Shown in pieces: positions 3,472-62,844 of a DNA stretch of 64,000 bases. Origin of the DNA: Desulfobacterales bacterium. GTDB lineage: Bacteria; Desulfobacterota; Desulfobacteria; Desulfobacterales; SURF-7. The translations under genes were made by a program, and so were the position numbers. Position 1 is the stretch's first letter, and the number at the start of each line of letters is the position of its first letter. A model generated the notes under the pieces. The model had not been told where the DNA came from. It did not search any database and was given only the letters and a program-made list of their open reading frames with translations. The stretch spans positions 38,615 to 102,614 of the forward strand of contig JANQFQ010000035.1 in NCBI GenBank assembly GCA_028277765.1, read 5' to 3'.

Positions 3472-3499
3472 ATTGTCCTCCCTTTATATATTTTATATT

Positions 3500-3609
3500 A
3501 GTGCCTAAAGTTATAAGTGCCTAAAGTTGATGTATCGCTTCGCTCTATCATTTTTAAACAGGCAGAATTCCACAACTTAAGGCACTTGTAACTTGTAACT
3601 TAAGGCACT
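3500..3609. repeat. Family-2 (GTGCCTAAAGT-word) imperfect palindromic element inside the operon spacer
   Basis: Left arm is AGTGCCTAAAGTTATAAGTGCCTAAAGTTGATGTATCGCTTCGCTCT. Right arm is CCACAACTTAAGGCACTTGTAACTTGTAACTTAAGGCACT, its imperfect reverse complement. Confidence 0.65.
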
Positions 3610-3615
3610 TTTTTA

Positions 3616-5208
3616 CTACCAGTCCTTTTTCGCTTTCAAAACAGGTATCCGGTCAATAACCGTATCTATCCTGTCAAGAATTCCCGGTGGATTTGCCAGA
3701 CCTTCTGGATCGAACGCATCCTTTACCTTTTTTGCATAAAGGTGGAAGTTCGGACCGTAGTTGGGGCCGTCAAGGGATGCTGGAGAAATCGCTTGGTTAA
3801 AGAAACTCAAAGCGCCCGCATCGATGACGATCTTTGGCCCAGCAATAGCATAATAGTCTAAAATCTTTTCAACATTTTCTTCGGTTTCATATGGTTCTGC
3901 GTAATTCATGAATTCCAGGTAGCCGTTGTGACCGAAGTCGTTGAGCTGAAACCATCCTGGATCATGATGGTCATCCATGAGGGGCGGTGTATATTTTTCT
4001 TTAAGGTCAGCGAACTTTTCACCCATCTTGACGCTACAGTCCAGTGAATCAAGCTGGCCGGTAACTGACATGTTGGCGCCGGTTAGCCACCACATGGTTA
4101 CCGCGTCACAGCTCTGCATCCAGGAACCATCCACCTGCCGTGTCCGCCGATGCTCACACCCGTGGTTTTCCGCGATCTGCATCAATACTTTTTCTTCGTA
4201 CTGAAGCTGTTTTCGGGAAGTATACCCGATGAGCATAACCCGGAGAATCGCTGTTTCCGCCACCTCTTTACGTTTCTGTTCACGGTCTTCCATCCAGATC
4301 TCATGGAATTTTTCCTTGTCCCTTGCCCGAGCCATGTACCGCCAAGAGATAGGGACGCGGGTATTGGCTGCCCCGATTTCACAATGGCCAATATCATACA
4401 TAAAGTCGACCATGGTCTTTTTGTCAGGGCATGTAAAATTGTACCATTTCATTCTCTCTTCAGGGAAGAGGAAGAATGTCCATGGGGTTGTACCCACAGG
4501 AACAAGTTTCTCTTCATGAAATGGAAAGAGCTTAACAGTCATTTTTGTAACAATGCCCATGCTTCCGTGCCATCCGATACTCCCCCTTAAGATACCTCTT
4601 AAGTCAGGGCCGATACCTTCTCCCCAGAATCCGTCTTCTCCAGATGCAAGGGAGCCGATCTGTACGATTTCGCCATCAGGAAGGATCCACTCAGCACCCA
4701 TGATCCTGCGGTTGGCAAGGCCGGTCCTGTATGTCAGGGGGGAGTAACCCCAGATCAGTGTGTTCGCGATAACACCTACTTGTGAACCCCCGCCCGGAAC
4801 CATGGTATAAAGCCCATTATTCATGGCTTCAGCCTGGAGCTGTCCGAAATTTATTCCCGGACCGACAGTGGCGTTCATGTTTTTCGCGTCAATTTCAAAA
4901 TGCTTCATCCGCTTGAGATCAAGCAGGAGCGCGTCTTCATTTGACGGGCTTGCAGTGGGGAACCAGAAGGTGCTTGAGGGTGTGTAAGTGATCTTGTGCT
5001 TACATGCCACCTTGACAATCTTCTGTACTTCCTCTGTTGATCCCGGGAGCAGGACAATTTCGGGTATGGTGGAGAGGGCTTTAGCGTCTGTATTGTGCCA
5101 CGCCCTGTCACCGCCCATTACATAAGCCTGGCACACATCCCTGTCCTGGGAGATGTTATCCGGCCCGACGATTTCTTCAAGTTCTTTATATATTTCTTTA
5201 GATATCAT
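3616..5208 (-). CDS. FAD-binding oxidoreductase (PCMH-type FAD_binding_4 / FAD-linked oxidase C-terminal)
   Basis: 530 aa. It has a PCMH-type FAD-binding region (LLPGSTEEVQKIVKVA) and a C-terminal KDAFDPEGLANPG motif typical of GlcD/VAO-type flavoproteins. Its start overlaps the upstream stop by 1 nt. Confidence 0.75.
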   Translation of the reverse strand: MISKEIYKELEEIVGPDNISQDRDVCQAYVMGGDRAWHNTDAKALSTIPEIVLLPGSTEEVQKIVKVACKHKITYTPSSTFWFPTASPSNEDALLLDLKRMKHFEIDAKNMNATVGPGINFGQLQAEAMNNGLYTMVPGGGSQVGVIANTLIWGYSPLTYRTGLANRRIMGAEWILPDGEIVQIGSLASGEDGFWGEGIGPDLRGILRGSIGWHGSMGIVTKMTVKLFPFHEEKLVPVGTTPWTFFLFPEERMKWYNFTCPDKKTMVDFMYDIGHCEIGAANTRVPISWRYMARARDKEKFHEIWMEDREQKRKEVAETAILRVMLIGYTSRKQLQYEEKVLMQIAENHGCEHRRTRQVDGSWMQSCDAVTMWWLTGANMSVTGQLDSLDCSVKMGEKFADLKEKYTPPLMDDHHDPGWFQLNDFGHNGYLEFMNYAEPYETEENVEKILDYYAIAGPKIVIDAGALSFFNQAISPASLDGPNYGPNFHLYAKKVKDAFDPEGLANPPGILDRIDTVIDRIPVLKAKKDW

Positions 5209-9494: not shown

Positions 9495-11315
9495 ATGAAC
9501 GGGTGGATGGGAAATATATTGAGGATAAATTTGACGACAGGAAAAACAGGTTTAGAAGATCTTGATCCTGAGGCTGCCAGGATGTTCATAGGGGGACATG
9601 GCCTTGGAGCAAAAATACTCATGGATGAAGTTGACCCTAAAATCGATCCTTTATCAGCAGAGAACAAGCTGATTTTTTCCACTGGTCCACTTACAGGTAC
9701 GGCTGCACCAGCAAGCTCAAGGTACATGGTTATTGCCAAATCACCCCTTACAGGACTGCTTGGATTCGCGAACAGCGGCGGTTTTTTTGGGCCTGCCATA
9801 AAAACTGCTGGATATGATCATATCATTATTGAAGGGAAGGCCGACAAACCGGTTTATATATGGATAGATGACGATACTGTTGAGATCAGGGATGCCGATC
9901 ATATCTGGGGTAAAGATACCCATGAAACAGAAGATATTATCCGTGGAGAAGTGGAAGGCACCGGCAAACGCGCAAGGGTGGCATGTATAGGACCTGCGGG
10001 TGAAAAACTGGTAAAGATTGCTGCGATTATGAATGACAAGCACAGGGCAGCTGCCAGGTGCGGCCTGGGAGCTGTGATGGGTTCCAAGAATCTCAAAGGA
10101 ATGGCCGTGCGGGGGTCAAAAAAGCCCAGCATTGCTGATCCAGATCGTTTTAAAAAAATCAATAAATCATCAAGGGAGAAGATCAAGGCCAATCCTGTTA
10201 CAAATGAAATCTGGCCGGCAATGGGGACCGCGTCAGGTGTGATGATGTTTAAGGAGCTGGGTGTTATTCCATCAAAGAATTTCCAGGATTCCTACAATAA
10301 AGACTACGGGCCGATAAGCGGTGAAGTCCTGTCTGAGAAATTCCTGAAAAAACCGAAGGCCTGTTTTTCCTGTCCTCTGCGATGCGGCAGAGGTACGGAA
10401 GTGACAGAGCCGGGTTTTGAGGGCGAGGGTGAGGGGCCGGAATATGAGACCGTGGGGATGTTCGGGCCTAACCTGGAGATTAACAGCCTGGCTGCTGTGA
10501 CAAAGGCGAATTATATCTGCAATGAGCTCGGTATTGACACGATTTCTTTTGGCGGAACGCTTGGATGCGCGTTTGAGCTATATGAAAAAGGATATCTTAC
10601 AAAGGAAGATACAGGTATTGAACTGACATTCGGAGACGGCCACCTGCTTGTAAAACTTGCTGAGATGACAGGGAAAAGAGAGGGCTTTGGCGACATGCTC
10701 GCTGAGGGCGGATACCGCATCGCGGAAAAATACGGTCATCCTGAACTGTTCATGGGGGTTCATAAAATGGAGATCCCTTCATATGATCCCCGTGCTGTAA
10801 AAGGGATGGGGATAACATACATGACATCTTCTATCGGACCGAGTCATGGCAGGGGATATACGGTTGCCCTTGAAGTATACGGTTCGCCCGAAATGCTGGA
10901 CCCGGTCGCGGAAAAAGGGAAAGCAGCAGTGGCTATAGAAAAGCAGAATCAGTCATGCGCCTGGGACGCTACAGGACTGTGTATTTTTGTCTCCATGGGT
11001 ATTGAAGATAATGATGCACTGGCGCTGCTGTCAGCAGCCACCGGAGAGACGTTTGACGAGCTTGGCTTTATAAAAGCAGGAGAGAGGATATTTAACCTTC
11101 AACGTCTTTTTAACTTAAAGGCCGGCATTAAAAAGGAAGATGAAATTCTCCCGGAAAGATTATTAAAGGAACCGTTGCCTGACGGTATGAATGCTGGTTC
11201 AACACTTTCTCTTGAAGAAGAATTAAAAGCGTATTATAAGTTGAGGGGTTGGGATGGGGATTATGTGCCGACGAAGGAGAAACTGGAGGAGTTGGGATTG
11301 TCTGATTATATTTAG
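9495..11315 (+). CDS. aor: Tungsten-type aldehyde:ferredoxin oxidoreductase (AOR-2)
   Basis: 606 aa. It begins MNGWMGNILRINLTTGK and carries GGHGLGAKIL, GPLTGT, KSPLTG and CFSCPLRCGR. It is collinear with AOR-1 and AOR-3. Confidence 0.9.
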   Translation: MNGWMGNILRINLTTGKTGLEDLDPEAARMFIGGHGLGAKILMDEVDPKIDPLSAENKLIFSTGPLTGTAAPASSRYMVIAKSPLTGLLGFANSGGFFGPAIKTAGYDHIIIEGKADKPVYIWIDDDTVEIRDADHIWGKDTHETEDIIRGEVEGTGKRARVACIGPAGEKLVKIAAIMNDKHRAAARCGLGAVMGSKNLKGMAVRGSKKPSIADPDRFKKINKSSREKIKANPVTNEIWPAMGTASGVMMFKELGVIPSKNFQDSYNKDYGPISGEVLSEKFLKKPKACFSCPLRCGRGTEVTEPGFEGEGEGPEYETVGMFGPNLEINSLAAVTKANYICNELGIDTISFGGTLGCAFELYEKGYLTKEDTGIELTFGDGHLLVKLAEMTGKREGFGDMLAEGGYRIAEKYGHPELFMGVHKMEIPSYDPRAVKGMGITYMTSSIGPSHGRGYTVALEVYGSPEMLDPVAEKGKAAVAIEKQNQSCAWDATGLCIFVSMGIEDNDALALLSAATGETFDELGFIKAGERIFNLQRLFNLKAGIKKEDEILPERLLKEPLPDGMNAGSTLSLEEELKAYYKLRGWDGDYVPTKEKLEELGLSDYI

Positions 11316-11439: not shown

Positions 11440-11514
11440 GTAGGGTAGGCTGTGCCCACCAAACAAGTCAGCATACATGATGAATCAGTAGATGGTGAGC
11501 ACAGCCCACCCTAC
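11440..11514. repeat. GTAGGG-family inverted pair (REP-like)
   Basis: GTAGGGTAGGCTGTGCCCACC (11440-11460) and GGTGAGCACAGCCCACCCTAC (11494-11514) are near-perfect reverse complements. Confidence 0.75.
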
Positions 11515-11530
11515 ATTTTATTTTAAGAAA

Positions 11531-11593
11531 GGCAGAGCGAAGCGATACCACAACTTTAGGCACTTTAGCGCACTTTAGCGCATTTTAGGCACT
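11531..11593. repeat. Family-2 half element (reverse orientation)
   Basis: GGCAGAGCGAAGCGATACCACAACTTTAGGCACTTTAGCGCACTTTAGCGCATTTTAGGCACT is the reverse complement of the GTGCCTAAAGTTGTGGTATCGCTTCGCTCTGCC arm seen at 43185 and 48776. Confidence 0.6.
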
Positions 11594-11654
11594 TCTATTT
11601 ATAACATTAGACAGTTGAGCTCACTTAAGACTTTTAACAAAAAAGGAGACAGGA

Positions 11655-18420: not shown

Positions 18421-18590
18421 AAATTCGAATATCGAATATCGAAATCCGAAACAAATCCGAAATTCAAATTTCCAAATGTTCAAAGCATTTTCGTTTTATC
18501 ATTATAGATACCATTCATTTGTTTTGGTTATTTGAATTATGGTCATTTGATATTGTTTCGGATTTCGTACTTCGTGCTTCGGATTTATAT
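18421..18590. repeat. Family-1 palindromic element, copy C (inverted relative to copies A, B and D)
   Basis: The AAATGTTCAAAGC-type arm is on the left. The GGTCATTTGATATTGTTTCG core (reverse complement of CGAAACAATATCAAATGACC) is on the right, ending ...GTGCTTCGGATTTATAT. Confidence 0.7.
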
Positions 18591-18669
18591 CTGCGCAAGG
18601 TTATACAATTTTTCCGGCAAATGAACCTTTGGCTAAGCATGATTTAAAGACATTGTTGAGACCCGGGCC

Positions 18670-19967: not shown

Positions 19968-20166
19968 GAATCCAAAATCCGAATATCGAAATCCCCCGGC
20001 GACGGGACAGGCGAAACAATATCAAATGACCAAAATTCAAAATCAAAAGGCAATTTGATTTGAAATTTTAAGCGGTTATGGTTTCGAGCATTTGAACATT
20101 TGTATTCCGAATTTGTTTCGCCAAATTTTATGATCGGGTCGGATTTCGATATTCGAATTTAAATCC
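19968..20166. repeat. Family-1 palindromic element, copy D
   Basis: Left arm is GAATCCAAAATCCGAATATCGAAATCC...CGAAACAATATCAAATGACC. Right arm is GGTTTCGAGCATTTGAACATTTGTATTCCGAATTTGTTTCG...GGATTTCGATATTCGAATTT. Confidence 0.65.
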
Positions 20167-20240: not shown

Positions 20241-20639
20241 TTAAGCTGCTTCTTTTTTCTCTTCTTCTACACCAGTCAGTTCCAGGGCGCCTGAGATACA
20301 AACATTGACACACTTTGGATCTGGTGGATCACCGCAGAAGTCGCATTTCAGCGCCACATCTGTATCTGGTTCCCTGAACCAGGGCCTGGTGGGGCAGGAA
20401 GCACGACACAGGGTACATTCATCATACTCCTCTCCATGAAGCACATAATCAATTTTACTAGTGCATTCTGCATCTGTAGGTGGTCCAGATATTACCGGAT
20501 AGAATCTTTCCCCTTCAATAAAAATCCTTATTCTCGACTTTTTGGGATTAATGGAGCCATCATAATGCTCTGATGAACATGCTGCTTCGCAATGCCGGCA
20601 ACCAGTACATTTTTTATGGTCTATCTTTATCCTGGGCAT
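20241..20639 (-). CDS. Cys-rich 4Fe-4S ferredoxin-like protein (AOR-associated), paralog 1
   Basis: CTGCRHCEAAC (CxxCxxCxxxC) plus CTLCRASCP and CDFCG...CVNVC. It is 88/125 identical (hand alignment) to the ORF at 21047. An AAGGAGG RBS precedes the start. Confidence 0.75.
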   Translation of the reverse strand: MPRIKIDHKKCTGCRHCEAACSSEHYDGSINPKKSRIRIFIEGERFYPVISGPPTDAECTSKIDYVLHGEEYDECTLCRASCPTRPWFREPDTDVALKCDFCGDPPDPKCVNVCISGALELTGVEEEKKEAA

Positions 20640-21046: not shown

Positions 21047-21424
21047 TTATTGCACTTCAACCATGGTCAGGGCTTCAGCCGCGCAGACCTGGACACAGTG
21101 CGGTTCCGGCGGATCACCGCAGAAATCGCATTTTAATGCAATATCAGTGTCGGGCTCTCTGAACCACGGCCTGCTTGGACAGGCGGCACGGCAGAGCGTA
21201 CATTCATCATGTTCCTGGCCTTCAATAATGACATCAACCTTGCTGGTGCATTCCGCTTCAGTAGGCGGACCGGAAATAACAGGATAAAATCTTTCTGCTA
21301 CCATGCAAACCCTGATTCGAGATTTTTTTGGATTGATTTCATTCTCATAATGTTTTAATGAACATGCTGCCTCGCAGCTGCGGCACCCTGTACATTTTGC
21401 CTGGTCTATCCTTATCCTTTGCAT
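21047..21424 (-). CDS. Cys-rich 4Fe-4S ferredoxin-like protein (AOR-associated), paralog 2
   Basis: CTGCRSCEAAC, CTLCRAACP and CDFCG...CVQVC (13 Cys in total). A GAAGGAGG RBS precedes the start. Confidence 0.75.
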   Translation of the reverse strand: MQRIRIDQAKCTGCRSCEAACSLKHYENEINPKKSRIRVCMVAERFYPVISGPPTEAECTSKVDVIIEGQEHDECTLCRAACPSRPWFREPDTDIALKCDFCGDPPEPHCVQVCAAEALTMVEVQ

Positions 21425-21823: not shown

Positions 21824-23671
21824 TTACAGCCCTTGTCCTTCCAGACCTAACTCCGCGAGTTTCTGCGGTGTGGGAACGCCTTCCTCATCCCATCCGCGAA
21901 GCATGTAGTAATACTTCAGCATTGTTTCGACATCCGGGTTCTTTCCTTTACCCGGTCCTGCAGTGGCCGGTTCTTCCCGCAGCCGCTTGGGCAGAACGTC
22001 ATCAGCTTTTGTGATACCCGCCTTCAGGTTGAACATCTTCTGCAGGTTCCATATTCTTTCCCCGTTGATGACGACTTCCGGCATGGTGTAGTTCACACCG
22101 GTAGCTGTGGCAAGCTGGGGGAACAAGAGGGGCGGCGGCTGTCCCGACATGCTGAACTGGCAGAAGCCGGCACAGTCAACAAGGGCTGTCTGCATGTTCT
22201 GCATCATCATGAGCATCTCGGCCTTCCCCTGCATTGATACCGGATCGACCGCCATCTCTTTGGGCCCGAACGCGTGGGCAAGGGCTTCCCTTACCAGTGT
22301 ATATGCGCGACAATGACATCCGCCCCTTGTGGACGTGACAACCCCGAGGGCCATGCCATAAGCGTTTCTGGCGTCATACCCGGCATACCCCATCTTCTTT
22401 ACGCCGATAAAAAGATCGGGCTGGCCGTATTTCTCAGCTAGTGTTGCACCACCTTCGGCAATGAGCTCACCAAGGCCTTCACGGTATGCGGTCTGCTGGA
22501 TAAGTGTTACAAGCGCTTCACCGTTGCCGAAGTTCAATTTCATGCCCGCGTCTGACTCCGGCAGGTGTCCTTCTTCATAAAGCTCCATGGCGCAGGAGAC
22601 CTGGCAAGCCATATCCATTGTGTCAATACCGAGCCGGTTGCATTCATTATTCCCTTTTAAAAGTGCTTCCGGGTCATAAATACCGCAATTGGGTCCCATC
22701 AGCGCGTGGGTTTCATATTCAGGCCTGTGGGAAACGCCCTCAAAAGGACCTTCTTTAACTTCTGCCGGACCGCCGCAGCTCATGGGACAGCTGAAACATC
22801 CCTGGTTCCTGATAAGATAACCGTCAGCAACCGCCTGCCCGCTGATTTTATGGGCTTCCGGAAGGGCCATTTTCTTAAAATTCATATGGGGTAACAAGCC
22901 GACTTCATTGTAAAAATTAACTAGCCCCGCAGATCCGTATGCTGGAAATACCTTGCTCGCTCTTTCACTGGCTCTGATTGCGCCAAGCGCGGCATTAACA
23001 GATTTGTTAAATGCTTCAGGAACGGCCACGGAAACGTCTTTTGTTCCATGGGCCACAACCGCTTTCAGGTTTTTTGACCCCATAACAGCGCCGATACCGC
23101 ACCTTGCTGCAGCCCTGTGCTTGTCGCTCATAATGGCGGCAATTTTTACAAGGTTTTCTCCTGCAGGACCGATGGAGGCAATCCGTGTGTCCATTGCTTT
23201 CCATGGATCATCAATTTCAGACTTGATGATGTCTTCAGTTTCAAAAACATCTTTCCCCCAGAGATGGTCAGCATCCATTATCTCAATTTCATCATCATCG
23301 ATCCACAGCATTACCGGGTCATCCGCAATGCCTTCAAAGATGATCATGTCATACCCGGCGAACTTTACTTCAGCCGGGAAATAACCGCCAACATTAGAAA
23401 ATGCGATACCTCCTGTCAGCGGTGACTTGGCTGCCCAGACACTCCTGATACCGGTTACAGCACCGGTACCGACAAGGGCGCCTGTGCTGAAAATCAACTT
23501 GTTCTCTTCACCCAGAGCGTCGATTGTTGGATCAACCTCATCATAGAGAATTCTGGTGGCTGTTCCCTGGGCTCCTATATACATCTTGGCGAAATAGGGA
23601 TCCAGATCCTCGATGTCGTATTCCCTTTCGCTCAAGTCAACTCTCAGGATTTTCCCTGCCCATGCATGCAT
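21824..23671 (-). CDS. aor: Tungsten-type aldehyde:ferredoxin oxidoreductase (AOR-3)
   Basis: 615 aa. It begins MHAWAGKILRVDLSE and carries GAQGTATRIL, KSPLTG and CFSCPMSCGG. An AGGAGG RBS precedes the start. Confidence 0.9.
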   Translation of the reverse strand: MHAWAGKILRVDLSEREYDIEDLDPYFAKMYIGAQGTATRILYDEVDPTIDALGEENKLIFSTGALVGTGAVTGIRSVWAAKSPLTGGIAFSNVGGYFPAEVKFAGYDMIIFEGIADDPVMLWIDDDEIEIMDADHLWGKDVFETEDIIKSEIDDPWKAMDTRIASIGPAGENLVKIAAIMSDKHRAAARCGIGAVMGSKNLKAVVAHGTKDVSVAVPEAFNKSVNAALGAIRASERASKVFPAYGSAGLVNFYNEVGLLPHMNFKKMALPEAHKISGQAVADGYLIRNQGCFSCPMSCGGPAEVKEGPFEGVSHRPEYETHALMGPNCGIYDPEALLKGNNECNRLGIDTMDMACQVSCAMELYEEGHLPESDAGMKLNFGNGEALVTLIQQTAYREGLGELIAEGGATLAEKYGQPDLFIGVKKMGYAGYDARNAYGMALGVVTSTRGGCHCRAYTLVREALAHAFGPKEMAVDPVSMQGKAEMLMMMQNMQTALVDCAGFCQFSMSGQPPPLLFPQLATATGVNYTMPEVVINGERIWNLQKMFNLKAGITKADDVLPKRLREEPATAGPGKGKNPDVETMLKYYYMLRGWDEEGVPTPQKLAELGLEGQGL

Positions 23672-28664: not shown

Positions 28665-29025
28665 GCAGGATGCAACGATCACTCATTTCCTCTTTTTATC
28701 TCACACACAATAATGTAAATATTCTTGACATGTACTGGCGCTTAACATAATTTATTTGCATCTAAAGAACTGATTTTCCAGCTTTAAAACTGATTCTACA
28801 TATTTATTTGCCATTAATGCTGGTATTCTATCTGAAGCGGCAATCAAGTTCAGTTTTAATAGATTAGAGAAAGCCAAACCTTTTGAAAAAAAGGGACGGA
28901 AAACCACGGATTCGTTGTTTGGTGGATAGCCGGGTTGCCTGATTAATTTCTTGTTCGGCAAGTAAAGCAGGTCTATTTGTAACCCAACATTTTTCGTAAA
29001 AGAATAAACTATTAAGGAGGATGCC

Positions 29026-30120
29026 ATGGCAAAGAAAATGAAAACACCAGGTCAGAAGCGAAAATCGATACTTCGAATAGTAATTTTACTGCTGGCGCTT
29101 GTTTTAATTTGTTTAGGCGCGGCAATTAAAGGCGGTATGGCTGTGGTTTCAAAGCAGCTTATTGAAAAGCACGAAACAGTTATCGCGGATGTTACTGATG
29201 TGCAGGAGAAGAAAATTACCTATCGTAAGAAAAAAAGGAAAAAAACCAAGATGGTATACTCTGTCTCTTATCAGTTTCAGAGTGAGGGTAAGACATATAC
29301 AAAAACACTAATGATCTCTGAACCCGAGTATCAGGCTCTCAAAGATAAGAAACAAATGGAAGTGTGGTATGAACCAGGAAATCCAGAACGCAGCTCTTTT
29401 GAAGCGCATTTGCGCGCCAAGTCTTCGAAGAGGAGTTTCACTGCAAACGCTATAAGCGCAAGTATTGTTGTTGTGCCTGTATGCGCTGTGTTATACGTAA
29501 TCCTTGCTTTTCTGTTTGTTCGAGAGAAAGGAGGGGTGATACCGGAAGGGTTTGTTACAGATACAAGCTGGCTGGATGTGGATGACAACTTTCTGATTGT
29601 ACTTGAAGATGAGAATCTTGCTATCGTCAAGATCGACGAGAAACGAGTATCGCGCGTGCAGGACCTGTATCAGGAAAGCGCGTCACTTGAATCAATGGTT
29701 GATGAAGGTAAAGGCGTAGTAACTCGGGTGCCGCTCGCCAAGATAACATCAATAGAGAGTAAACATTATAGTGACAGCATTTATGTTAAGTACGAAAAGG
29801 ACGATGACAGTGACAGCGAAAGTGTCGAGTTTTTGAACCCCACCGTCAAAGAACACGCCCTGGAACGTATTGCACCGAAACTCTCTTCCGGGCTGACCAA
29901 ATCCGTAAAAGAGCTTACGAGGATACAGGCGGCCATACCATCTTTGATTGGCGCTATTATTTGCGGAGGCGCCATGGCTTTTTTCCGTGACGCCATTTTT
30001 GTTCTTATTCTTGGCGGTATTGGTCTGCTCTATGCGTTAAAAACACTTCTGACACGTGTGATTGATCCAACGGTTATTACTACATGGGAGGCTCCGGAAA
30101 AAGAAGGGACAGAGGAGTAA
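29026..30120 (+). CDS. Four-TM membrane protein with a DUF3592-like N-terminal module
   Basis: AAGGAGG RBS. The order is TM helix (ILLLALVLICLGAAI), a beta-rich ~110-aa segment, a second TM, a ~130-aa acidic soluble segment, then two C-terminal TM helices. Confidence 0.55.
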   Translation: MAKKMKTPGQKRKSILRIVILLLALVLICLGAAIKGGMAVVSKQLIEKHETVIADVTDVQEKKITYRKKKRKKTKMVYSVSYQFQSEGKTYTKTLMISEPEYQALKDKKQMEVWYEPGNPERSSFEAHLRAKSSKRSFTANAISASIVVVPVCAVLYVILAFLFVREKGGVIPEGFVTDTSWLDVDDNFLIVLEDENLAIVKIDEKRVSRVQDLYQESASLESMVDEGKGVVTRVPLAKITSIESKHYSDSIYVKYEKDDDSDSESVEFLNPTVKEHALERIAPKLSSGLTKSVKELTRIQAAIPSLIGAIICGGAMAFFRDAIFVLILGGIGLLYALKTLLTRVIDPTVITTWEAPEKEGTEE

Positions 30121-43184: not shown

Positions 43185-43319
43185 AGTGCCTAAATTGCGC
43201 TAAAGTGCCTAAAGTTGTGGTATCGCTCCGCTCTATCATTTTTAAAATGAGTCGTGATCGTGGTCAGCGAAGCGGTGATCGTGGTCGTGATCGATAATGG
43301 TGGGCACAGCCCACCCTAC
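43185..43319. repeat. Composite repeat block: family 2, then family 6 (CGTGATCGTGGTC words), then a GTAGGG unit
   Basis: AGTGCCTAAATTGCGCTAAAGTGCCTAAAGTTGTGGTATCGCTCCGCTCTATCA / GTCGTGATCGTGGTCAGCGAAGCGGTGATCGTGGTCGTGATCGATAAT / GGTGGGCACAGCCCACCCTAC. The same module order recurs at 48972-49066. Confidence 0.7.
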
Positions 43320-46883: not shown

Positions 46884-46949
46884 TTAACAAGGATAAACAG
46901 GATGGGCAGGATAAATAAACATCCTATATATCCTGTACATCCTTGTTAA
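46884..46949. repeat. Family-5 (ACAGGAT-word) nested palindrome between convergent genes; possible bidirectional terminator
   Basis: The outer pair is TTAACAAGGAT ... ATCCTTGTTAA (11 bp). The inner pair is ACAGGAT...ATCCTGT. Related words (ACAGGATTAACAGGATTGACTGGATT) lie at 48886-48916. Confidence 0.5.
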
Positions 46950-46967
46950 TTTATGTTTTTTAAGTCC

Positions 46968-48704
46968 TCAGTCCTGTGTTTTTACAAGAAACAGATGAAT
47001 ATACCGCGGATCAAGATCCTGAACTGCGATATCGTTGTACTCAGATTCTATCTCTAAAAAAAGATTTTCAAAGGTCTTTCCCAGTTTTCCCGTAATGTCA
47101 CTGTTTGCGAGTCCGGAGCGGGCTGTTAGCCAGTTTAGAAAAGATGTTTTTGCGGAGATATCTATTCTGTATCGATCAGCGTCTTTGGTTTTAGAAAAGA
47201 TTATTTTATAGAATCGCCTGAATTCATCAAGGGAAATGGGTCCTGGTGTGTCTGGTAGGCTGAAACTATGTTTAGACCACATGGTGAGTATATGGTTTTT
47301 CCATGTAAGGACGGTATTGGTGCTTGCCTCAGGCGTTTCATCTAATAGAGAGAGGAGGCGGTCAAGCTCGATAATCGCATCCAGTATCTCTTCAGTTTCT
47401 CTAATATCAGATTGTTTTTTAAATTCCCTGAAAAGAACGCCGGTTTTATAATTGTCATAATACAGGGGACGTTTTACAAGGAGCCCGCCTAGAACACCCA
47501 ACATATGCTCGCCCCAGAAACTTAAAGGGAGACCGCTTTCTTCAAACCAGCTGTTGTTCCGCCATTTTTCGGCTCTCCATTTCAGTTCAAGGGGAAGAGC
47601 GTAACCTGTTCGGAAGATATCCGCCAGTGTGTGTTTCTTCAAAAGGGGTGTAGTATCAGCTGGCTCAGGCCAGTCTTCTTTGCATAGACTCTGTAAACCG
47701 ATGCTCAAATAACTGCAGGCTTTATCAACAATATCCCTTAATTCATCTTTTCCCTTGATTACTTTCCGATCAGCTGAAATAAGACGGTTACAGAGAGCAG
47801 CAAACTCCGCCTGGAGCTGCATAAGGAGTTCATCGATGTCCATGGTCATGAGGGACCGGGCAAAAATATTGTCTTCAGTGAGCATCCCGGCTGAGTAGTC
47901 CGGAACAGGAAGAAGGGTGTTCCCTTCTGAATCTCTCATGACATTTTTCGTTTCAACCGTGCTTAGTGCTTTTGGCTTCAGGGGCTGATAAACGCCGATA
48001 GCCTCTTCAAAAGGGAGAAATCCTTTTTCAGCCAGCCGGATGTTCCTGAGCCGATACTCCTCTTCTTCCACTTCAGCCGGGATAACCGTTTGTGTCTCGT
48101 TAAGCATCGCCTGAAATATCAGATGGTCCTGTTCGGCTAGAAGTTTCAGCAGGTGCGCAAGAATGGTTCGTTTTTTTTCCTCCTTTTCTTTTTCTTCTTT
48201 TTCTTCAAAAGGGTAATCAATAAACCTGATATAATAGACATCATCAAAAGTGAAGAAATCATTTCCAAAAGTAGAAGGATCCTCATCATGTTCTCTCTTC
48301 CTGATTTCGATATTTTTAAAAAGAAAGAGCTCAATAAATTCTACCTTTTCACTGGTCAGCCAGCTGGTCAGTCTTGCCGGGTCTGCTTTGATTAAGAGGT
48401 CAATCCATTTAGAGACGGCAATACCGCTGACCTTGTCCTTGTCCCAAACTTCCTGATCAATCATATATTCCCATTGTCTGTTTGACGCCATCGCAAGGAT
48501 TTGTAAGGCATCGTGAATGCCGATTTCATTGATCAGAATATGTAGGTCCTGTTCGGGAAAGGAATGAACTAGAGGTAGTGCTTGGGGAGAATCAATGATT
48601 TCGCTCAAAGCTTTTTCAGGGGGAAGAGAAAGAAGCCGCTGCCGCTCGCCGTGCAGTTTTGCAAGCTGTTTCTCAATATTTTTCTGTTGAATCAGGTCAT
48701 TCAT
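46968..48704 (-). CDS. Conserved-looking hypothetical protein with an internal Glu/Lys-rich tract
   Basis: The 578-aa ORF has coding-like composition and an FEEKEEKEKEEKKR low-complexity insert. I recognise no motif. Confidence 0.5.
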   Translation of the reverse strand: MNDLIQQKNIEKQLAKLHGERQRLLSLPPEKALSEIIDSPQALPLVHSFPEQDLHILINEIGIHDALQILAMASNRQWEYMIDQEVWDKDKVSGIAVSKWIDLLIKADPARLTSWLTSEKVEFIELFLFKNIEIRKREHDEDPSTFGNDFFTFDDVYYIRFIDYPFEEKEEKEKEEKKRTILAHLLKLLAEQDHLIFQAMLNETQTVIPAEVEEEEYRLRNIRLAEKGFLPFEEAIGVYQPLKPKALSTVETKNVMRDSEGNTLLPVPDYSAGMLTEDNIFARSLMTMDIDELLMQLQAEFAALCNRLISADRKVIKGKDELRDIVDKACSYLSIGLQSLCKEDWPEPADTTPLLKKHTLADIFRTGYALPLELKWRAEKWRNNSWFEESGLPLSFWGEHMLGVLGGLLVKRPLYYDNYKTGVLFREFKKQSDIRETEEILDAIIELDRLLSLLDETPEASTNTVLTWKNHILTMWSKHSFSLPDTPGPISLDEFRRFYKIIFSKTKDADRYRIDISAKTSFLNWLTARSGLANSDITGKLGKTFENLFLEIESEYNDIAVQDLDPRYIHLFLVKTQD

Positions 48705-48775
48705 GTTTCAGTTTACCTTGTTAAATTGTTTAATAAACCAGTTGTAGTATAATAGTCAACATGTTCTAGGGTATC

Positions 48776-49300
48776 AAGTGCCTAAAAGGCCTTGTATAGT
48801 GAAAAACAAAGTGCCTAGAGTGCCTAAAGTGCGCTAAAGTGCCTAAAGTTGTGGTATCGCTTTGCTCTGCCATATTTATGTATTTTAGACAGGATTAACA
48901 GGATTGACTGGATTTCAGTAGGGTGGGCTGTGCCCACCGGGTAACTTTAAGTATCGTGATCGGGTTAGGAAAAGTTATAAGTGCCTTAAGTTGTGGTATC
49001 GCTTCGCTCTGCCAGTATTTAAGAAACGTGGTCGTGATCGAAAATGGTGGGCACAGCCCACCCTACAATGTACTAAATCCCGCCGCGGCGGGACTAAAGT
49101 TGATGTATCGCTCCGTTCTTCCTTTATATATTCGTGATCGTGGTCAGTCCTGCCAGCAGTGGGACGGTGATCGTGGTCGTGATCGAAAAGCTGGATATTA
49201 GGTGTTGGGTAGTGGATACGAAGTCTTTGTGAAAAGGCAAATCTCCCCCAGCCCCTCTTTACTAAAGAGGGGAGTGAATCTTTCCCCTTTTACAAAGGGG
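48776..49300. repeat. BIME-like mosaic of repeat families 2, 5, 6 and GTAGGG units, plus two CCCCT(C)TTT/AAAG(A)GGGG hairpins
   Basis: Family 2 lies at 48776-48871, 48972-49013 and 49093-49120. Family 5 lies at 48886-48916. GTAGGGTGGGCTGTGCCCACC at 48918-48938 has its perfect reverse complement at 49046-49066. Family 6 lies at 49027-49044 and 49131-49188. The hairpins are at 49252-49272 and 49284-49300. Confidence 0.75.
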
Positions 49301-49353
49301 AATTGTTATTGCTGAAAAGTGACAATTTTAAATTAGGACCTGACTGTCAATGC

Positions 49354-50601
49354 TTATTTTATTTTCGACGTATTGCCAGACCATGGGGCGAACTTAAGAA
49401 GGAGAAGCATGCCTGGTATGGCTATGACTGTACAAAGTATAAAGAACCACTCCCATCCCAGATACTTTGCGAAAAGACCTGTGGGTGCTGAAGCGAAAAC
49501 TCGTGGAATACCCATTAGACTGCTGAGAAGCGCGTATTGTGTGGCTGTAAATTTTTTATTGGTTATACTGGCCATAAAAGCCACAAATGCAGTTGTTCCC
49601 ATACCGCTGCTCAAGTTTTCAAAGGCTATTACAATTGAAAGTGCTGTAATACTGCTTCCGATTTGGGCCAGAATCGCGAAACCCGCTGTGGAAGCAGCTT
49701 GCAGAAAACCGAATATCCAAAGGCTCCGGTAAATACCCAGGCGCAGCATAAGTAAACCGCCTATAAGGCTTCCAGCTATTGTAGCCCAGAAACCAAAGAT
49801 TTTAACAACTGCGCCAATTTCTGTTTTGGAGAATCCAATATCCAGATAAAAAGGCGTTGTCATCGCGCTTGCCATGGTATCACCGATTTTATAAAAAAGG
49901 ATGAAAGCAAGAATCCATATAGCGCCAGAGCGGCTGAAATATTCTATAAGCGGATCGATAACCGCTTCTTGGATATTCACTGGAGGTTTTTCAGATACCA
50001 CAGGTTCGGTGGTAAAAATAGTTGTCATAACGCACGGTATCATACAGGCTGCCATGATCATATAGACCATTGAAAATGGCATATGGTCAGCCATTATCAG
50101 TCCTCCCCCGGAAGCAAGAAGCATTCCCAAGCGGTATCCGTTTACATAAAGTGATGAACCAAGCCCAAGTTCCTCATCGGAAAGATCCTCCCTGCGATAA
50201 GCATCAACCACTATGTCCTGGCTTGCGCTGAAAAAGGTAACCATAAATGCTGCCAGTGCAACCATCCAAGGTGAACGGGCAGGATTTGTCAGACCGAGGC
50301 ATATAATGGAAACGACAAGGGTAGCCTGGGCGATCAGTAGCCAGCCTCGGCGGCGGCCTAGAACGGGGAGCGTGAAACGATCGAGAAAGGGAGCCCATAA
50401 GAATTTTAGTGTATATGGAAGACCAACAAGTGCCATTAAGCCAATTACTGTAAGGTCTACTCCTTCTTCTTTCATCCATGCCTGAAGAACGGTAATAGTC
50501 AAAAGAAGTGGCAAACCGCATGCAAATCCCATGATAAGGGCTACAAGCATACGCCGGCTGAAAATTGTTTTTATGATGTCGATTTTTCTATCAGGCTGCA
50601 A
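49354..50601 (-). CDS. ampG: AmpG-family MFS permease (muropeptide transporter-like)
   Basis: 12-TM MFS pattern. The N-terminal IFSRRMLVALIMGFACGLPLLLTITVLQAWM parallels the E. coli AmpG N-terminus. The start appears to be TTG. Confidence 0.7.
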   Translation of the reverse strand: MQPDRKIDIIKTIFSRRMLVALIMGFACGLPLLLTITVLQAWMKEEGVDLTVIGLMALVGLPYTLKFLWAPFLDRFTLPVLGRRRGWLLIAQATLVVSIICLGLTNPARSPWMVALAAFMVTFFSASQDIVVDAYRREDLSDEELGLGSSLYVNGYRLGMLLASGGGLIMADHMPFSMVYMIMAACMIPCVMTTIFTTEPVVSEKPPVNIQEAVIDPLIEYFSRSGAIWILAFILFYKIGDTMASAMTTPFYLDIGFSKTEIGAVVKIFGFWATIAGSLIGGLLMLRLGIYRSLWIFGFLQAASTAGFAILAQIGSSITALSIVIAFENLSSGMGTTAFVAFMASITNKKFTATQYALLSSLMGIPRVFASAPTGLFAKYLGWEWFFILCTVIAIPGMLLLLKFAPWSGNTSKIK

Positions 50602-62770: not shown

Positions 62771-62844
62771 GTAGGGTGGGCTGTGCCCACCAGCAATTGG
62801 TTAATAAGGCATTCTGACAATTTGGTGGGCACAGCCCACCCTAC
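62771..62844. repeat. GTAGGG-family perfect inverted pair
   Basis: GTAGGGTGGGCTGTGCCCACC (62771-62791) and GGTGGGCACAGCCCACCCTAC (62824-62844) are exact reverse complements separated by 32 nt. Confidence 0.8.

Follow-up and report, generated by a model that had tools for sequence, protein, structure and literature searches.

A probable BIME-like cluster of GTAG-type REPs and a second palindromic repeat between the DUF6178 and ampG genes of a Desulfobacterales bacterium

REPs, short for repetitive extragenic palindromic sequences, are bound as hairpins of single-stranded DNA by a REP-associated tyrosine transposase (RAYT) of the HUH/Y1 type, which also cuts and rejoins them. To our knowledge, the biology of REPs and of the bacterial interspersed mosaic elements (BIMEs) has been worked out almost entirely in Gammaproteobacteria. 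In Cyanobacteria, small dispersed repeats (SDR) are reportedly nested in heptamer arrays of short tandemly repeated repetitive (STRR) sequences, an observation ascribed to Elhai et al. in 2008. Among the described systems closest to the one reported here, the REP of Haemophilus influenzae is GTAGGGTGGGCTTcAGCCCACC, given as GTAGGGTGGGCTT(c/t)AGCCCACC, and H. parasuis has GTAGGGTGGGTCTTGACCCACC (Nunvar 2010, PMC2817692); in Anabaena variabilis, Halothiobacillus neapolitanus and Thermomicrobium roseum, REP dimers are regularly found inserted in particular longer palindromes (Di Nocera 2013, PMC3733652). Intergenic heptamer direct repeats occur in Beggiatoaceae and Cyanobacteria, with TAACTGA repeats lying just upstream of start codons (MacGregor 2015, PMC4679880), and systems of RAYTs and REP doublets forming hairpins (REPINs) are, in the description given with RAREFAN, mostly lineage-specific and vertically inherited. 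Here we describe a 650-nt gap (48705-49353) that separates two minus-strand genes, DUF6178 and ampG, in a 64-kb stretch of DNA from a Desulfobacterales bacterium of the SURF-7 lineage (GenBank assembly GCA_028277765.1, contig JANQFQ010000035.1, positions 38,615 to 102,614). This stretch of 64,000 nt is called the window below, and coordinates refer to it unless another locus is named. With a probability that we put at roughly three in four, the gap is a cluster of non-autonomous repeats with BIME architecture, containing a 21-nt REP, GTAGGGTGGGCTGTGCCCACC, together with a second palindromic repeat (family 2) and short tandem arrays.

The REP unit, GTAGGGTGGGCTGTGCCCACC, consists of a GTAG head directly before a 7-bp stem (GGTGGGC/GCCCACC) with a 3-nt loop, TGT. 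Seven copies are present in the window (five perfect, two with one mismatch), all of them intergenic, a density that would extrapolate to hundreds per genome. Six of the seven form three head-out inverted pairs, at 11440/11494, 48918/49046 and 62771/62824, which as single strands fold more stably than shuffled sequences (z = -6.3, -6.6 and -9.5, respectively; -33.3 kcal/mol for 48918/49046). The exact 21-mer was found in at least 117 genome stretches in a scan of one genome per GTDB species. Among the matches listed, Planctomycetota are the most frequent hosts, and the others are Desulfobacterales and other Thermodesulfobacteriota, Candidatus Schekmanbacteria, Nitrospirota, Gallionellales, Nitrosomonadales, Candidatus Thiosymbion, a Calothrix isolate and single contigs of metagenome-assembled genomes (MAGs) from other phyla; in this set the 21-mer most often comes as head-out pairs, whose spacers of 3-60 nt are specific to the lineage. 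When the contexts of the 21-mer are aligned, conservation starts exactly at GTAG and stops at CACC, and the GTAG head stands directly before the stem in all seven window copies and in every copy retrieved. In Planctomycetota the spacers of the GTAGGGTGGGCTGTGCCCACC pairs are conserved across genomes, as in a REPIN.

By its head, stem and arrangement, GTAGGGTGGGCTGTGCCCACC is to be regarded as a member of the known and widely distributed GTAG superfamily of REPs. The members described from E. coli, Pseudomonas, Stenotrophomonas and Haemophilus likewise combine a GTAG head with a short GC-rich hairpin and are extragenic, numerous and found in inverted pairs, and the Haemophilus REPs (PMC2817692) share the head and nearly the same stem with GTAGGGTGGGCTGTGCCCACC. 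The loop, however, is 3 nt long in GTAGGGTGGGCTGTGCCCACC and 4 nt in the known members, the host is Desulfobacterales-like, and the E. coli REPs listed in the same paper are, by inspection, unrelated to GTAGGGTGGGCTGTGCCCACC.

A second line of evidence comes from transposase genes. Inverted copies of GTAGGGTGGGCTGTGCCCACC bracket a small gene in four lineages, which we refer to by their locus numbers (L006, L052, L071 and L076). The REPs lie at 3895 (plus) and 4475 (minus) in L006, from Nitrospirota, and at 1219 (plus) and 1904 (minus) in L052, from Planctomycetota, where the bracketed gene holds a stop codon. In L071, from Phycisphaerae, the gene is flanked by variant copies, at 4351 (plus) and 4989 (minus), that differ from the 21-mer at 3-4 positions, and ~250 nt upstream there is an exact copy; L076 is contig CALNYM010000023.1 of the Desulfobacterales MAG HOU_bin.0076. 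The proteins of L006, L071 and L076 match the NCBIfam model NF047646 ('REP-associated tyrosine transposase') with 177-190 bits against a cutoff of 80, and when aligned they all share the HUH histidines and the DYIHxNPVKHG tyrosine; the L076 protein also matches the E. coli TnpA-REP (PDB 4ER8) with an E value of 6e-36. The RAYTs beside the exact 21-mer are only 44-60% identical to one another.

The L076 gene has a peculiarity of its own: a perfect REP lies at 1183-1203, in frame within the RAYT coding sequence, where it is read as VGTAHPT. Compared with the L006 RAYT or E. coli TnpA-REP, this protein has 8 to 24 additional residues in the linker that carries the REP, and it seems that the REP entered the gene of its own transposase and left the frame intact.

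The other main component of the gap, family 2, has a core, GTGGTATCGNTNCGCTCTG, that is found in at least 120 metagenome stretches. About 12 of the matches listed lie in ordinary-looking sequence with no flanking array and are probably due to chance, while most of the others share one layout: a tandem array of 7-10-mers, a left core (coreL, GTGGTATCGCTTCGCTCTG(TC)), an AT-rich spacer, a right core (coreR, GAYAGAATWCC) and a second array, in most cases reverse-complementary to the first. Words of the left array include ATTGAAG, AATGACG, ATTGCGG and AATGTCGAA. The gap between GTGGTATCGCTTCGCTCTG and coreR mostly measures 13-18 nt; of the 65 copies whose coreR is no more than 110 nt away, 28 show exactly 17 nt. 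Since coreL is the reverse complement of coreR (GGWATTCTRTC) with ~8 additional nucleotides, CGCTTCGC, the palindrome is imperfect and its left arm bulged. The cores are constant while the arrays vary between copies, some of which are chimeric (L171, L175, L195, L211), and the array type of the window, AAGTGCCTA, recurs at the metagenome loci L146, L175, L195 and L224. A complete window copy at 3496-3612 is composed of an array, TTGATGTATCGCTTCGCTCTATC, 11 nt, GGCAGAATTCC and the inverted array; it nearly fills a 144-bp gap between two minus-strand genes and forms a long hairpin (z = -5.0). The inverted arms that define a miniature inverted-repeat transposable element (MITE) are seen in this copy and in many metagenomic ones, and the arrays of some chimeric copies are non-complementary.

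On this evidence family 2 is best described as an independent, imperfectly palindromic small element. No version containing an open reading frame (ORF), as a related autonomous insertion sequence would, was found, nor was a target-site duplication recognisable at 3496-3612. In three cases coreL and coreR stand 1.05-1.3 kb apart; one of these (L123) has no ORF of 80 aa or more, and the other two (L148, L158) have ORFs that look ordinary when judged by eye. Among the papers searched, none contains the family-2 core.

Several observations concern the surroundings and the interior of family 2. At many metagenome loci (L125, L128, L156, L191, L221 and ~20 others) a left hairpin, cccaaCCCGGacaaGCCGG, precedes the element and a right tail, tggctatggcataaatcatgtgcaaacatgatgtgatttcaataaataggtac, follows it, beyond which the sequence is unique; the combination of cccaaCCCGGacaaGCCGG, family 2 and tggctatggcataaatcatgtgcaaacatgatgtgatttcaataaataggtac is a dispersed unit of ~200 nt that has no Rfam match. 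Elsewhere the cores themselves are split. A palindromic insert, cctgcccgcc...ggcgggcggg, lies at a fixed point within coreL (L047, L051), and another palindromic insert, cgttcgaccc...ctcgacgggt, sometimes with an internal tandem duplication, lies between GAT and AGAATT of coreR (L122, L123, L131, L143 and others). These split cores represent a nesting hierarchy of very small elements. The window also holds, at 177-337, 803-918, 18433-18592 and 20012-20041, a further dispersed family of short tandem words, TTTGAACATTTGGACATTTGATATTCGGATTTGTTTCGGATTTCGATATTCG, with copies 89-96% identical, which is similar to the arrays of CGGATTT and ATATTCGA found on either side of metagenomic family-2 cores.

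The two elements meet in a regular way. Of the 48 REP copies from the Desulfobacterota loci listed, 17 have, ~4 nt beyond their tail (CACC), either coreR or coreL in reverse complement, compared with 1 of the 160 copies among the matches listed from other phyla; none of the 121 metagenomic coreL copies listed has a REP within 150 nt. REP and family 2 each occur without the other and are therefore independent elements. Where both coexist, the REP appears to sit in the AT-rich centre of the family-2 palindrome, and this centre is probably a landing site for REPs in Desulfobacterota. The composites of the window are looser variants of the grammar seen in the MAGs: at 48991-49066 and 43215-43319 coreL and the REP tail are held apart by the AT spacer and by hexamers, and the spacer of the REP pair at 62771-62844 holds GTCAGAATGCC, a coreR variant.

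Within the gap, the repeat stack starts at 48776 with the left tandem array of a first family-2 element (48776-48848, plus), made of 9-10-nt units, AAGTGCCTA / AAGTGCGCTA, with an outlying unit at 48776-48789. Tandem Repeats Finder (TRF) assigns it a period of 9 and 4.6 copies at 48808-48849, and the array pattern AAGTGCCTAAAGT is matched 11 times in the window, where 0.09 matches would be expected. The array is followed on the plus strand by the first coreL copy, TTGTGGTATCGCTTTGCTCTGCC (48849-48871), by a 16-nt AT-rich central spacer (48872-48887) and by a coreR-like half-site, GACAGGATT, triplicated as the 9-mers ACAGGATTA, ACAGGATTG and ACTGGATT (48888-48914; TRF period 9, 2.9 copies at 48889-48914). 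The plus-strand REP (48918-48938) comes next, and then a linker within the REP pair (48939-48990, plus) made up of what resembles the remnant of an array, AACTTTAAG, of a degenerate block of hexamers, CGTGATCGGGTTAGG, and of units, AAGTTATAAGTGCCTTAAG, from the array of a second family-2 element. The second coreL copy, TTGTGGTATCGCTTCGCTCTGCC (48991-49013, plus), is identical to a minus-strand copy at 11531-11553, and the segment 48971-49010 is 92.5% identical to 3507-3546. A hexamer linker array, CGTGGTCGTGATCG (49027-49040, plus), whose word also stands at 43280-43293 before a REP, leads to the minus-strand REP (49046-49066), which forms the perfect 21-bp inverted pair with 48918-48938 and continues on the minus strand with ATTTTC. 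Further on lie a perfect 14-nt GC palindrome, CCCGCCGCGGCGGG (49079-49092, without strand), and a degenerate third coreL copy, TTGATGTATCGCTCCGTTCTTCC (49100-49122, plus; 69% over 36 nt). A direct hexamer array, CGTGATCGTGGTC ... GGTGATCGTGGTCGTGATCG (49133-49185, plus), is interrupted at 49146-49166 by AGTCCTGCCAGCAGTGGGACG. It is followed by unique sequence (49186-49251) and by two near-identical hairpins without strand (49252-49302, z = -4.8), CCCCTCTTTA-c-TAAAGAGGGG at 49252-49272 and TTCCCCTTT-tac-AAAGGGGAA at 49282-49302, which are located 52-102 nt downstream of the ampG stop codon.

This parse can be set against a first-pass annotation of the same DNA, which had proposed a BIME-like mosaic of at least four repeat families. 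Its three family-2 units are present (48837-48872, 48979-49014 with 94% and 49088-49123 with 69% identity), as is its perfect 21-nt inverted pair of GTAGGG units 107 nt apart, which are the two REPs. The array that it called family 5 is present too, but not as an independent dispersed family: there is no other close copy of the ACAGGATTA array in the window, and GACAGGATT at 48888 occupies the coreR position of 46 canonical elements, so that the ACAGGATTA/ACAGGATTG/ACTGGATT array, standing at the canonical coreR offset, is a triplicated coreR variant. The hexamer blocks that it called family 6 are in place as well, and the correction here is that they are a linker array with only two sites in the window, both adjoining REP tails. 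The pair of similar hairpins exists, but neither these two hairpins nor the CCCGCCGCGGCGGG palindrome nor the 21-nt insert at 49146-49166 has a second occurrence in the 1.6 Mb examined, and none of them is shown to be a repeat family.

The hexamer words CGTGATCGTGGTC / CGTGGTCGTGATCG occupy 49027-49040, 49133-49145 and 49167-49185, with CGTGGTCGTGATCG itself at 49027-49040 and 49172-49185 and GTGATCGTGGTC at 49134-49145 and 49167-49178. In the window they are confined to this gap and to 43252-43293, both times between coreL and the REP tail. They run in direct orientation on either side of tiny inserts, one of which, AGCGAAGCG (43265-43273), reads as the coreL centre in reverse complement, and the other (49146-49166) is the 21-nt AGTCCTGCCAGCAGTGGGACG, a short hairpin in the predicted fold. 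It looks as if these tiny inserts had entered a pre-existing direct array.

The repeats of the gap are not explained by chance. Dinucleotide shuffles yielded 0.00 family-2 units against 4 observed, 0.00 GTAGGG units against 7, and 0.13 hexamer words against 3. In a self-comparison of the whole window, 182 of the 650 nt of the gap lie under repeats, compared with 149 in the next-best stretch, which bears out the earlier statement that this is the densest repeat stack of the window. The families occur at five intergenic window sites (3496-3610, 11440-11594, 43185-43319, 48776-49190 and 62771-62844) and in other genomes and metagenomes as well; dispersal at the four sites beyond the gap, which had been named beforehand as a point on which the proposal could fail, was thus found. 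The order of family 2, family 6 and GTAGGG unit at 48972-49066 recurs, as first noticed, at 43185-43319, with 93.8% identity between 48979-49010 and 43203-43234 and 97.5% between 49027-49066 and 43280-43319. Nor does the gap hold a credible ORF, the three ORFs of 92, 48 and 62 aa having no meaningful Pfam match. The modular, BIME-like mosaic of dispersed families is supported by these findings and by the identity of the REP. The analogy with BIMEs is in fact closer than the first pass could know, the GTAGGG unit being a true GTAG-superfamily REP, identical copies of which flank RAYT genes elsewhere.

The recurrent order invites the explanation that there is a single composite element, with family 2, linker arrays and REP mobilised together as a block, by a RAYT for instance. 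We consider this unlikely. A block would account for the order shared by 43185-43319 and 48972-49066, with its near identity over the hexamer-REP junction, and for the junctions coreL-4 nt-REP and REP-4 nt-coreR that are kept at several loci of two Desulfobacterales MAGs; however, the two elements are mostly found apart (0 of 121 and 1 of 160 copies listed, as above), the distance between coreL and REP differs between 4 nt (L070), 32 nt (49014-49045) and 61 nt (43238-43298) with different arrays in between, and the orientation of the REP relative to coreL is not constant among the window copies.

We therefore favour a nested cluster of separate, small, non-autonomous elements with BIME architecture, made of REP, family 2 and linker arrays. 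The inverted, head-out REP pair would be REPIN-like, and RAYT-mobilised REPs would have inserted into or beside family-2 palindromes, the stack growing with each insertion and through slippage and local duplication of the short arrays. The 6- and 9-mer tandem arrays would join the modules and host the tiny inserts. The stack is probably largely selfish or neutral. On a minus-strand transcript running from ampG to DUF6178, the REP at 49066-49046 followed by AUUUUC would be terminator-like, and this hairpin with its U-rich tract, or a duplex of the two REPs, could attenuate read-through or provide a processing or stabilising site, a 21-bp REP-REP RNA duplex being long enough for an RNase III-type substrate. 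The consequence for DUF6178 and ampG is probably minor.

Several points weigh against this interpretation. No hairpin fold is predicted for the first family-2 copy of the gap (z = +2.1), and family 2 comes with no autonomous partner or target-site duplication, none being recognisable at 3496-3612. At 11440-11594 and 48849-48938 it is the head of the REP, not the tail, that faces the core, unlike the grammar of the MAGs. The spacers of the three window REP pairs, of 107, 32 and 33 nt, have no mutual similarity, whereas within a replicating REPIN population the spacer is normally the same. The 64-kb window encodes no RAYT, a tblastn search with the L076 RAYT recovering there only the peptide stretch encoded by the REP itself; such an absence is expected for a gene present in typically about one copy per genome, and we infer that the RAYT lies elsewhere in this genome. 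The link between REP and RAYT would thus be drawn for this genome from identity with other genomes only, and the transcriptional side-effects are predictions from sequence. Finally, the nearest DUF6178 homologue is only 51% identical, too distant for an empty-site or strain comparison, and mobility at the locus is putative.

The native 5' leader of the DUF6178 gene (48705-48775, minus) lies outside the repeat stack and brings in a regulatory explanation. Its sequence includes the only sigma-70-like site of the gap, on the minus strand, with a -35 box TTGATA (48777-48772), 17 nt and a -10 box TATTAT (48754-48749), matching at 10 of 12 positions, and DUF6178 appears to keep its own promoter at 48777-48749; one such site does not exceed the shuffle expectation of 1.7 and is an indication only. 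That the arrays and cores are iteron-like protein-binding sites, recruited for the DUF6178 promoter or for termination of ampG, is improbable. A AAGTGCCTA unit does adjoin the -35 box, the repeated 9-10-mers resemble operator arrays, and the REP with its T-tract downstream of ampG is terminator-like, but the same modules stand at four other, unrelated intergenic sites of the window, in both orientations to the flanking genes, and beside unrelated genes in many metagenome contigs, and the sequence of the arrays varies freely while that of the cores is constant.

Stronger doubts attach to structured non-coding RNA, whether a plus-strand small RNA ending at the 49252-49302 hairpins, a riboregulator, or a set of GGA 9-mers acting as a protein sponge, and we hold this to be very improbable. 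The hairpins are strong, and the second (49282-49302), alone of the two, has a T-rich tail on the plus strand, neither having a U-tract on the minus strand. With the Rfam 15 covariance models, however, the gap (searched as 48600-49450) matched no family at the gathering score in the search of the whole window or at E<=1 in that of the gap, save for a sub-threshold match to CRISPR-DR61, which speaks against a structured RNA of known class, the second condition under which the first-pass proposal was to be given up. Nor was there a relevant match at 12 related loci or in one canonical metagenomic family-2 element. There is no promoter-like site on the plus strand of the gap, and the orientation of the elements relative to genes is not fixed. 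The ACAGGAT repeats, which we take to be superficially like CsrA-binding motifs, were also considered as a CsrA sponge and rejected: they amount to ~3 GGA units only, lie outside hairpin loops and occupy the position of coreR. A degenerate CRISPR array or an assembly artefact can be set aside, for although three ~36-nt direct repeats and the weak CRISPR-DR61 match at 48711-48747 recall the former, the repeats lie at long, uneven intervals (142 and 109 nt), identity drops to 69% in the third copy, the unit is single at other loci and lies within a palindromic element in many other organisms, the CRISPR-DR61 match (25 bits against a gathering score of 38) falls outside the repeats, and the Logan assembly reproduces 46922-48829 exactly.

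Beyond the nested cluster as such, a wider and more tentative reading, which we regard as possible but clearly less likely than its opposite, would have two parts. In the first, the unit of array, GTGGTATCGCTTCGCTCTG, AT spacer, GAYAGAATWCC and inverted array would be an undescribed, very small mobile element, without an encoded enzyme, with modular, exchangeable arms and nested inserts, which would be widespread in sediment Desulfobacterales and would serve as a preferred integration site of the REP/RAYT system or be co-mobilised with it. In the second, the identity of the 21-mer in at least half a dozen phyla would reflect either a single REP-RAYT system that spread horizontally more than once or a single recognition hairpin under extreme conservation.

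As for the neighbouring genes, the DUF6178 gene (46968-48704, minus) is assigned by Pfam PF19676 (E 5e-154), and the AmpG-family muropeptide transporter of the major facilitator superfamily (49354-50601, minus, with its stop codon at 49354-49356) by TIGR00901 (511 bits against a cutoff of 350). The best homologues of DUF6178 are ~50% identical, and the named ones belong mostly to MAGs of Desulfobacterales, Thermodesulfobacteriota or simply Proteobacteria/Deltaproteobacteria. The host is accordingly Desulfobacterales-like, and no near relative of it is among the sequenced sources of these homologues. An exact-protein search returned a 1.9-kb Logan contig (L001, an independent assembly) for DUF6178 and none for AmpG. 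This contig matches 46922-48829 with 100% identity and ends within the AAGTGCCTA array, a typical assembly break at a dispersed repeat. Three further features of the window were observed. A c-di-GMP-I-GGC riboswitch (RF03167) lies at 28864-28943 on the plus strand (E 9e-14; 67.4 bits, the gathering score being 59), upstream of the ORF 29026-30120. A 100-nt direct repeat with 80% identity (20326-20425 and 21111-21210) is contained in two small minus-strand ORFs, and a 71-nt inverted repeat with 83% identity (9993-10063 and 23097-23167) lies inside two ORFs of ~610 aa; both probably reflect paralogous genes and not intergenic repeats.

With this cluster, BIME architecture is now seen in a sulfate-reducer lineage, and it is built from a REP sequence shared by distant phyla. 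GTAGGGTGGGCTGTGCCCACC is coupled here with a second, apparently undescribed palindrome that stands alone in many sediment metagenomes, and if the coupling reflects targeted insertion, it would provide a natural system for the choice of integration sites by RAYTs and for the spread of repeats that encode no enzyme. Such repeats are also of practical concern, because they break short-read assemblies and yield spurious small ORFs (VGWAVPT, VGTAHPT), which matters for the quality and annotation of MAGs.

The comparison with known systems gives likenesses and differences in each case. The BIMEs of E. coli and other enterobacteria are, as here, intergenic and often intra-operonic, with REPs that alternate in orientation and short motifs that recur between them; in our window the plus-strand REP at 48918 and the minus-strand REP at 49046 are accompanied by family-2 cores and hexamers that recur at 43185-43319, 11531-11594 and 3496-3610. 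Unlike those of enterobacterial BIMEs, the non-REP motifs of the gap are an independently dispersed palindrome and tandem 6-10-mers, and they have no sequence relationship to the E. coli BIME motifs. The longer palindromes reported in PMC3733652 resemble family 2 in carrying REPs at their centre, and the T. roseum target likewise exists unlinked to the REP, but family 2 differs in sequence, with arms composed of short tandem repeats that vary and with the extra ~8 nt CGCTTCGC in the left one. As in the SDR and heptamer systems, units of ~20-25 nt are nested in short tandem arrays (49146-49166, and AGCGAAGCG at 43265-43273), and the intergenic DNA is rich in tandem 6-10-mers; unlike for the TAACTGA repeats (PMC4679880), there is no sign of a start-codon-proximal position here, and sequences and phylum differ. 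Where the RAREFAN account presents REPIN-RAYT systems as mostly lineage-specific and vertical, the GTAGGGTGGGCTGTGCCCACC 21-mer is common to many phyla, and its horizontal spread or extreme conservation, if true, would be at odds with that picture. Two things look new: the bipartite palindrome with array arms, together with the way it is coupled to REPs in Desulfobacterota, and the identity of one 21-nt REP across many phyla beside RAYTs that are 44-60% identical.

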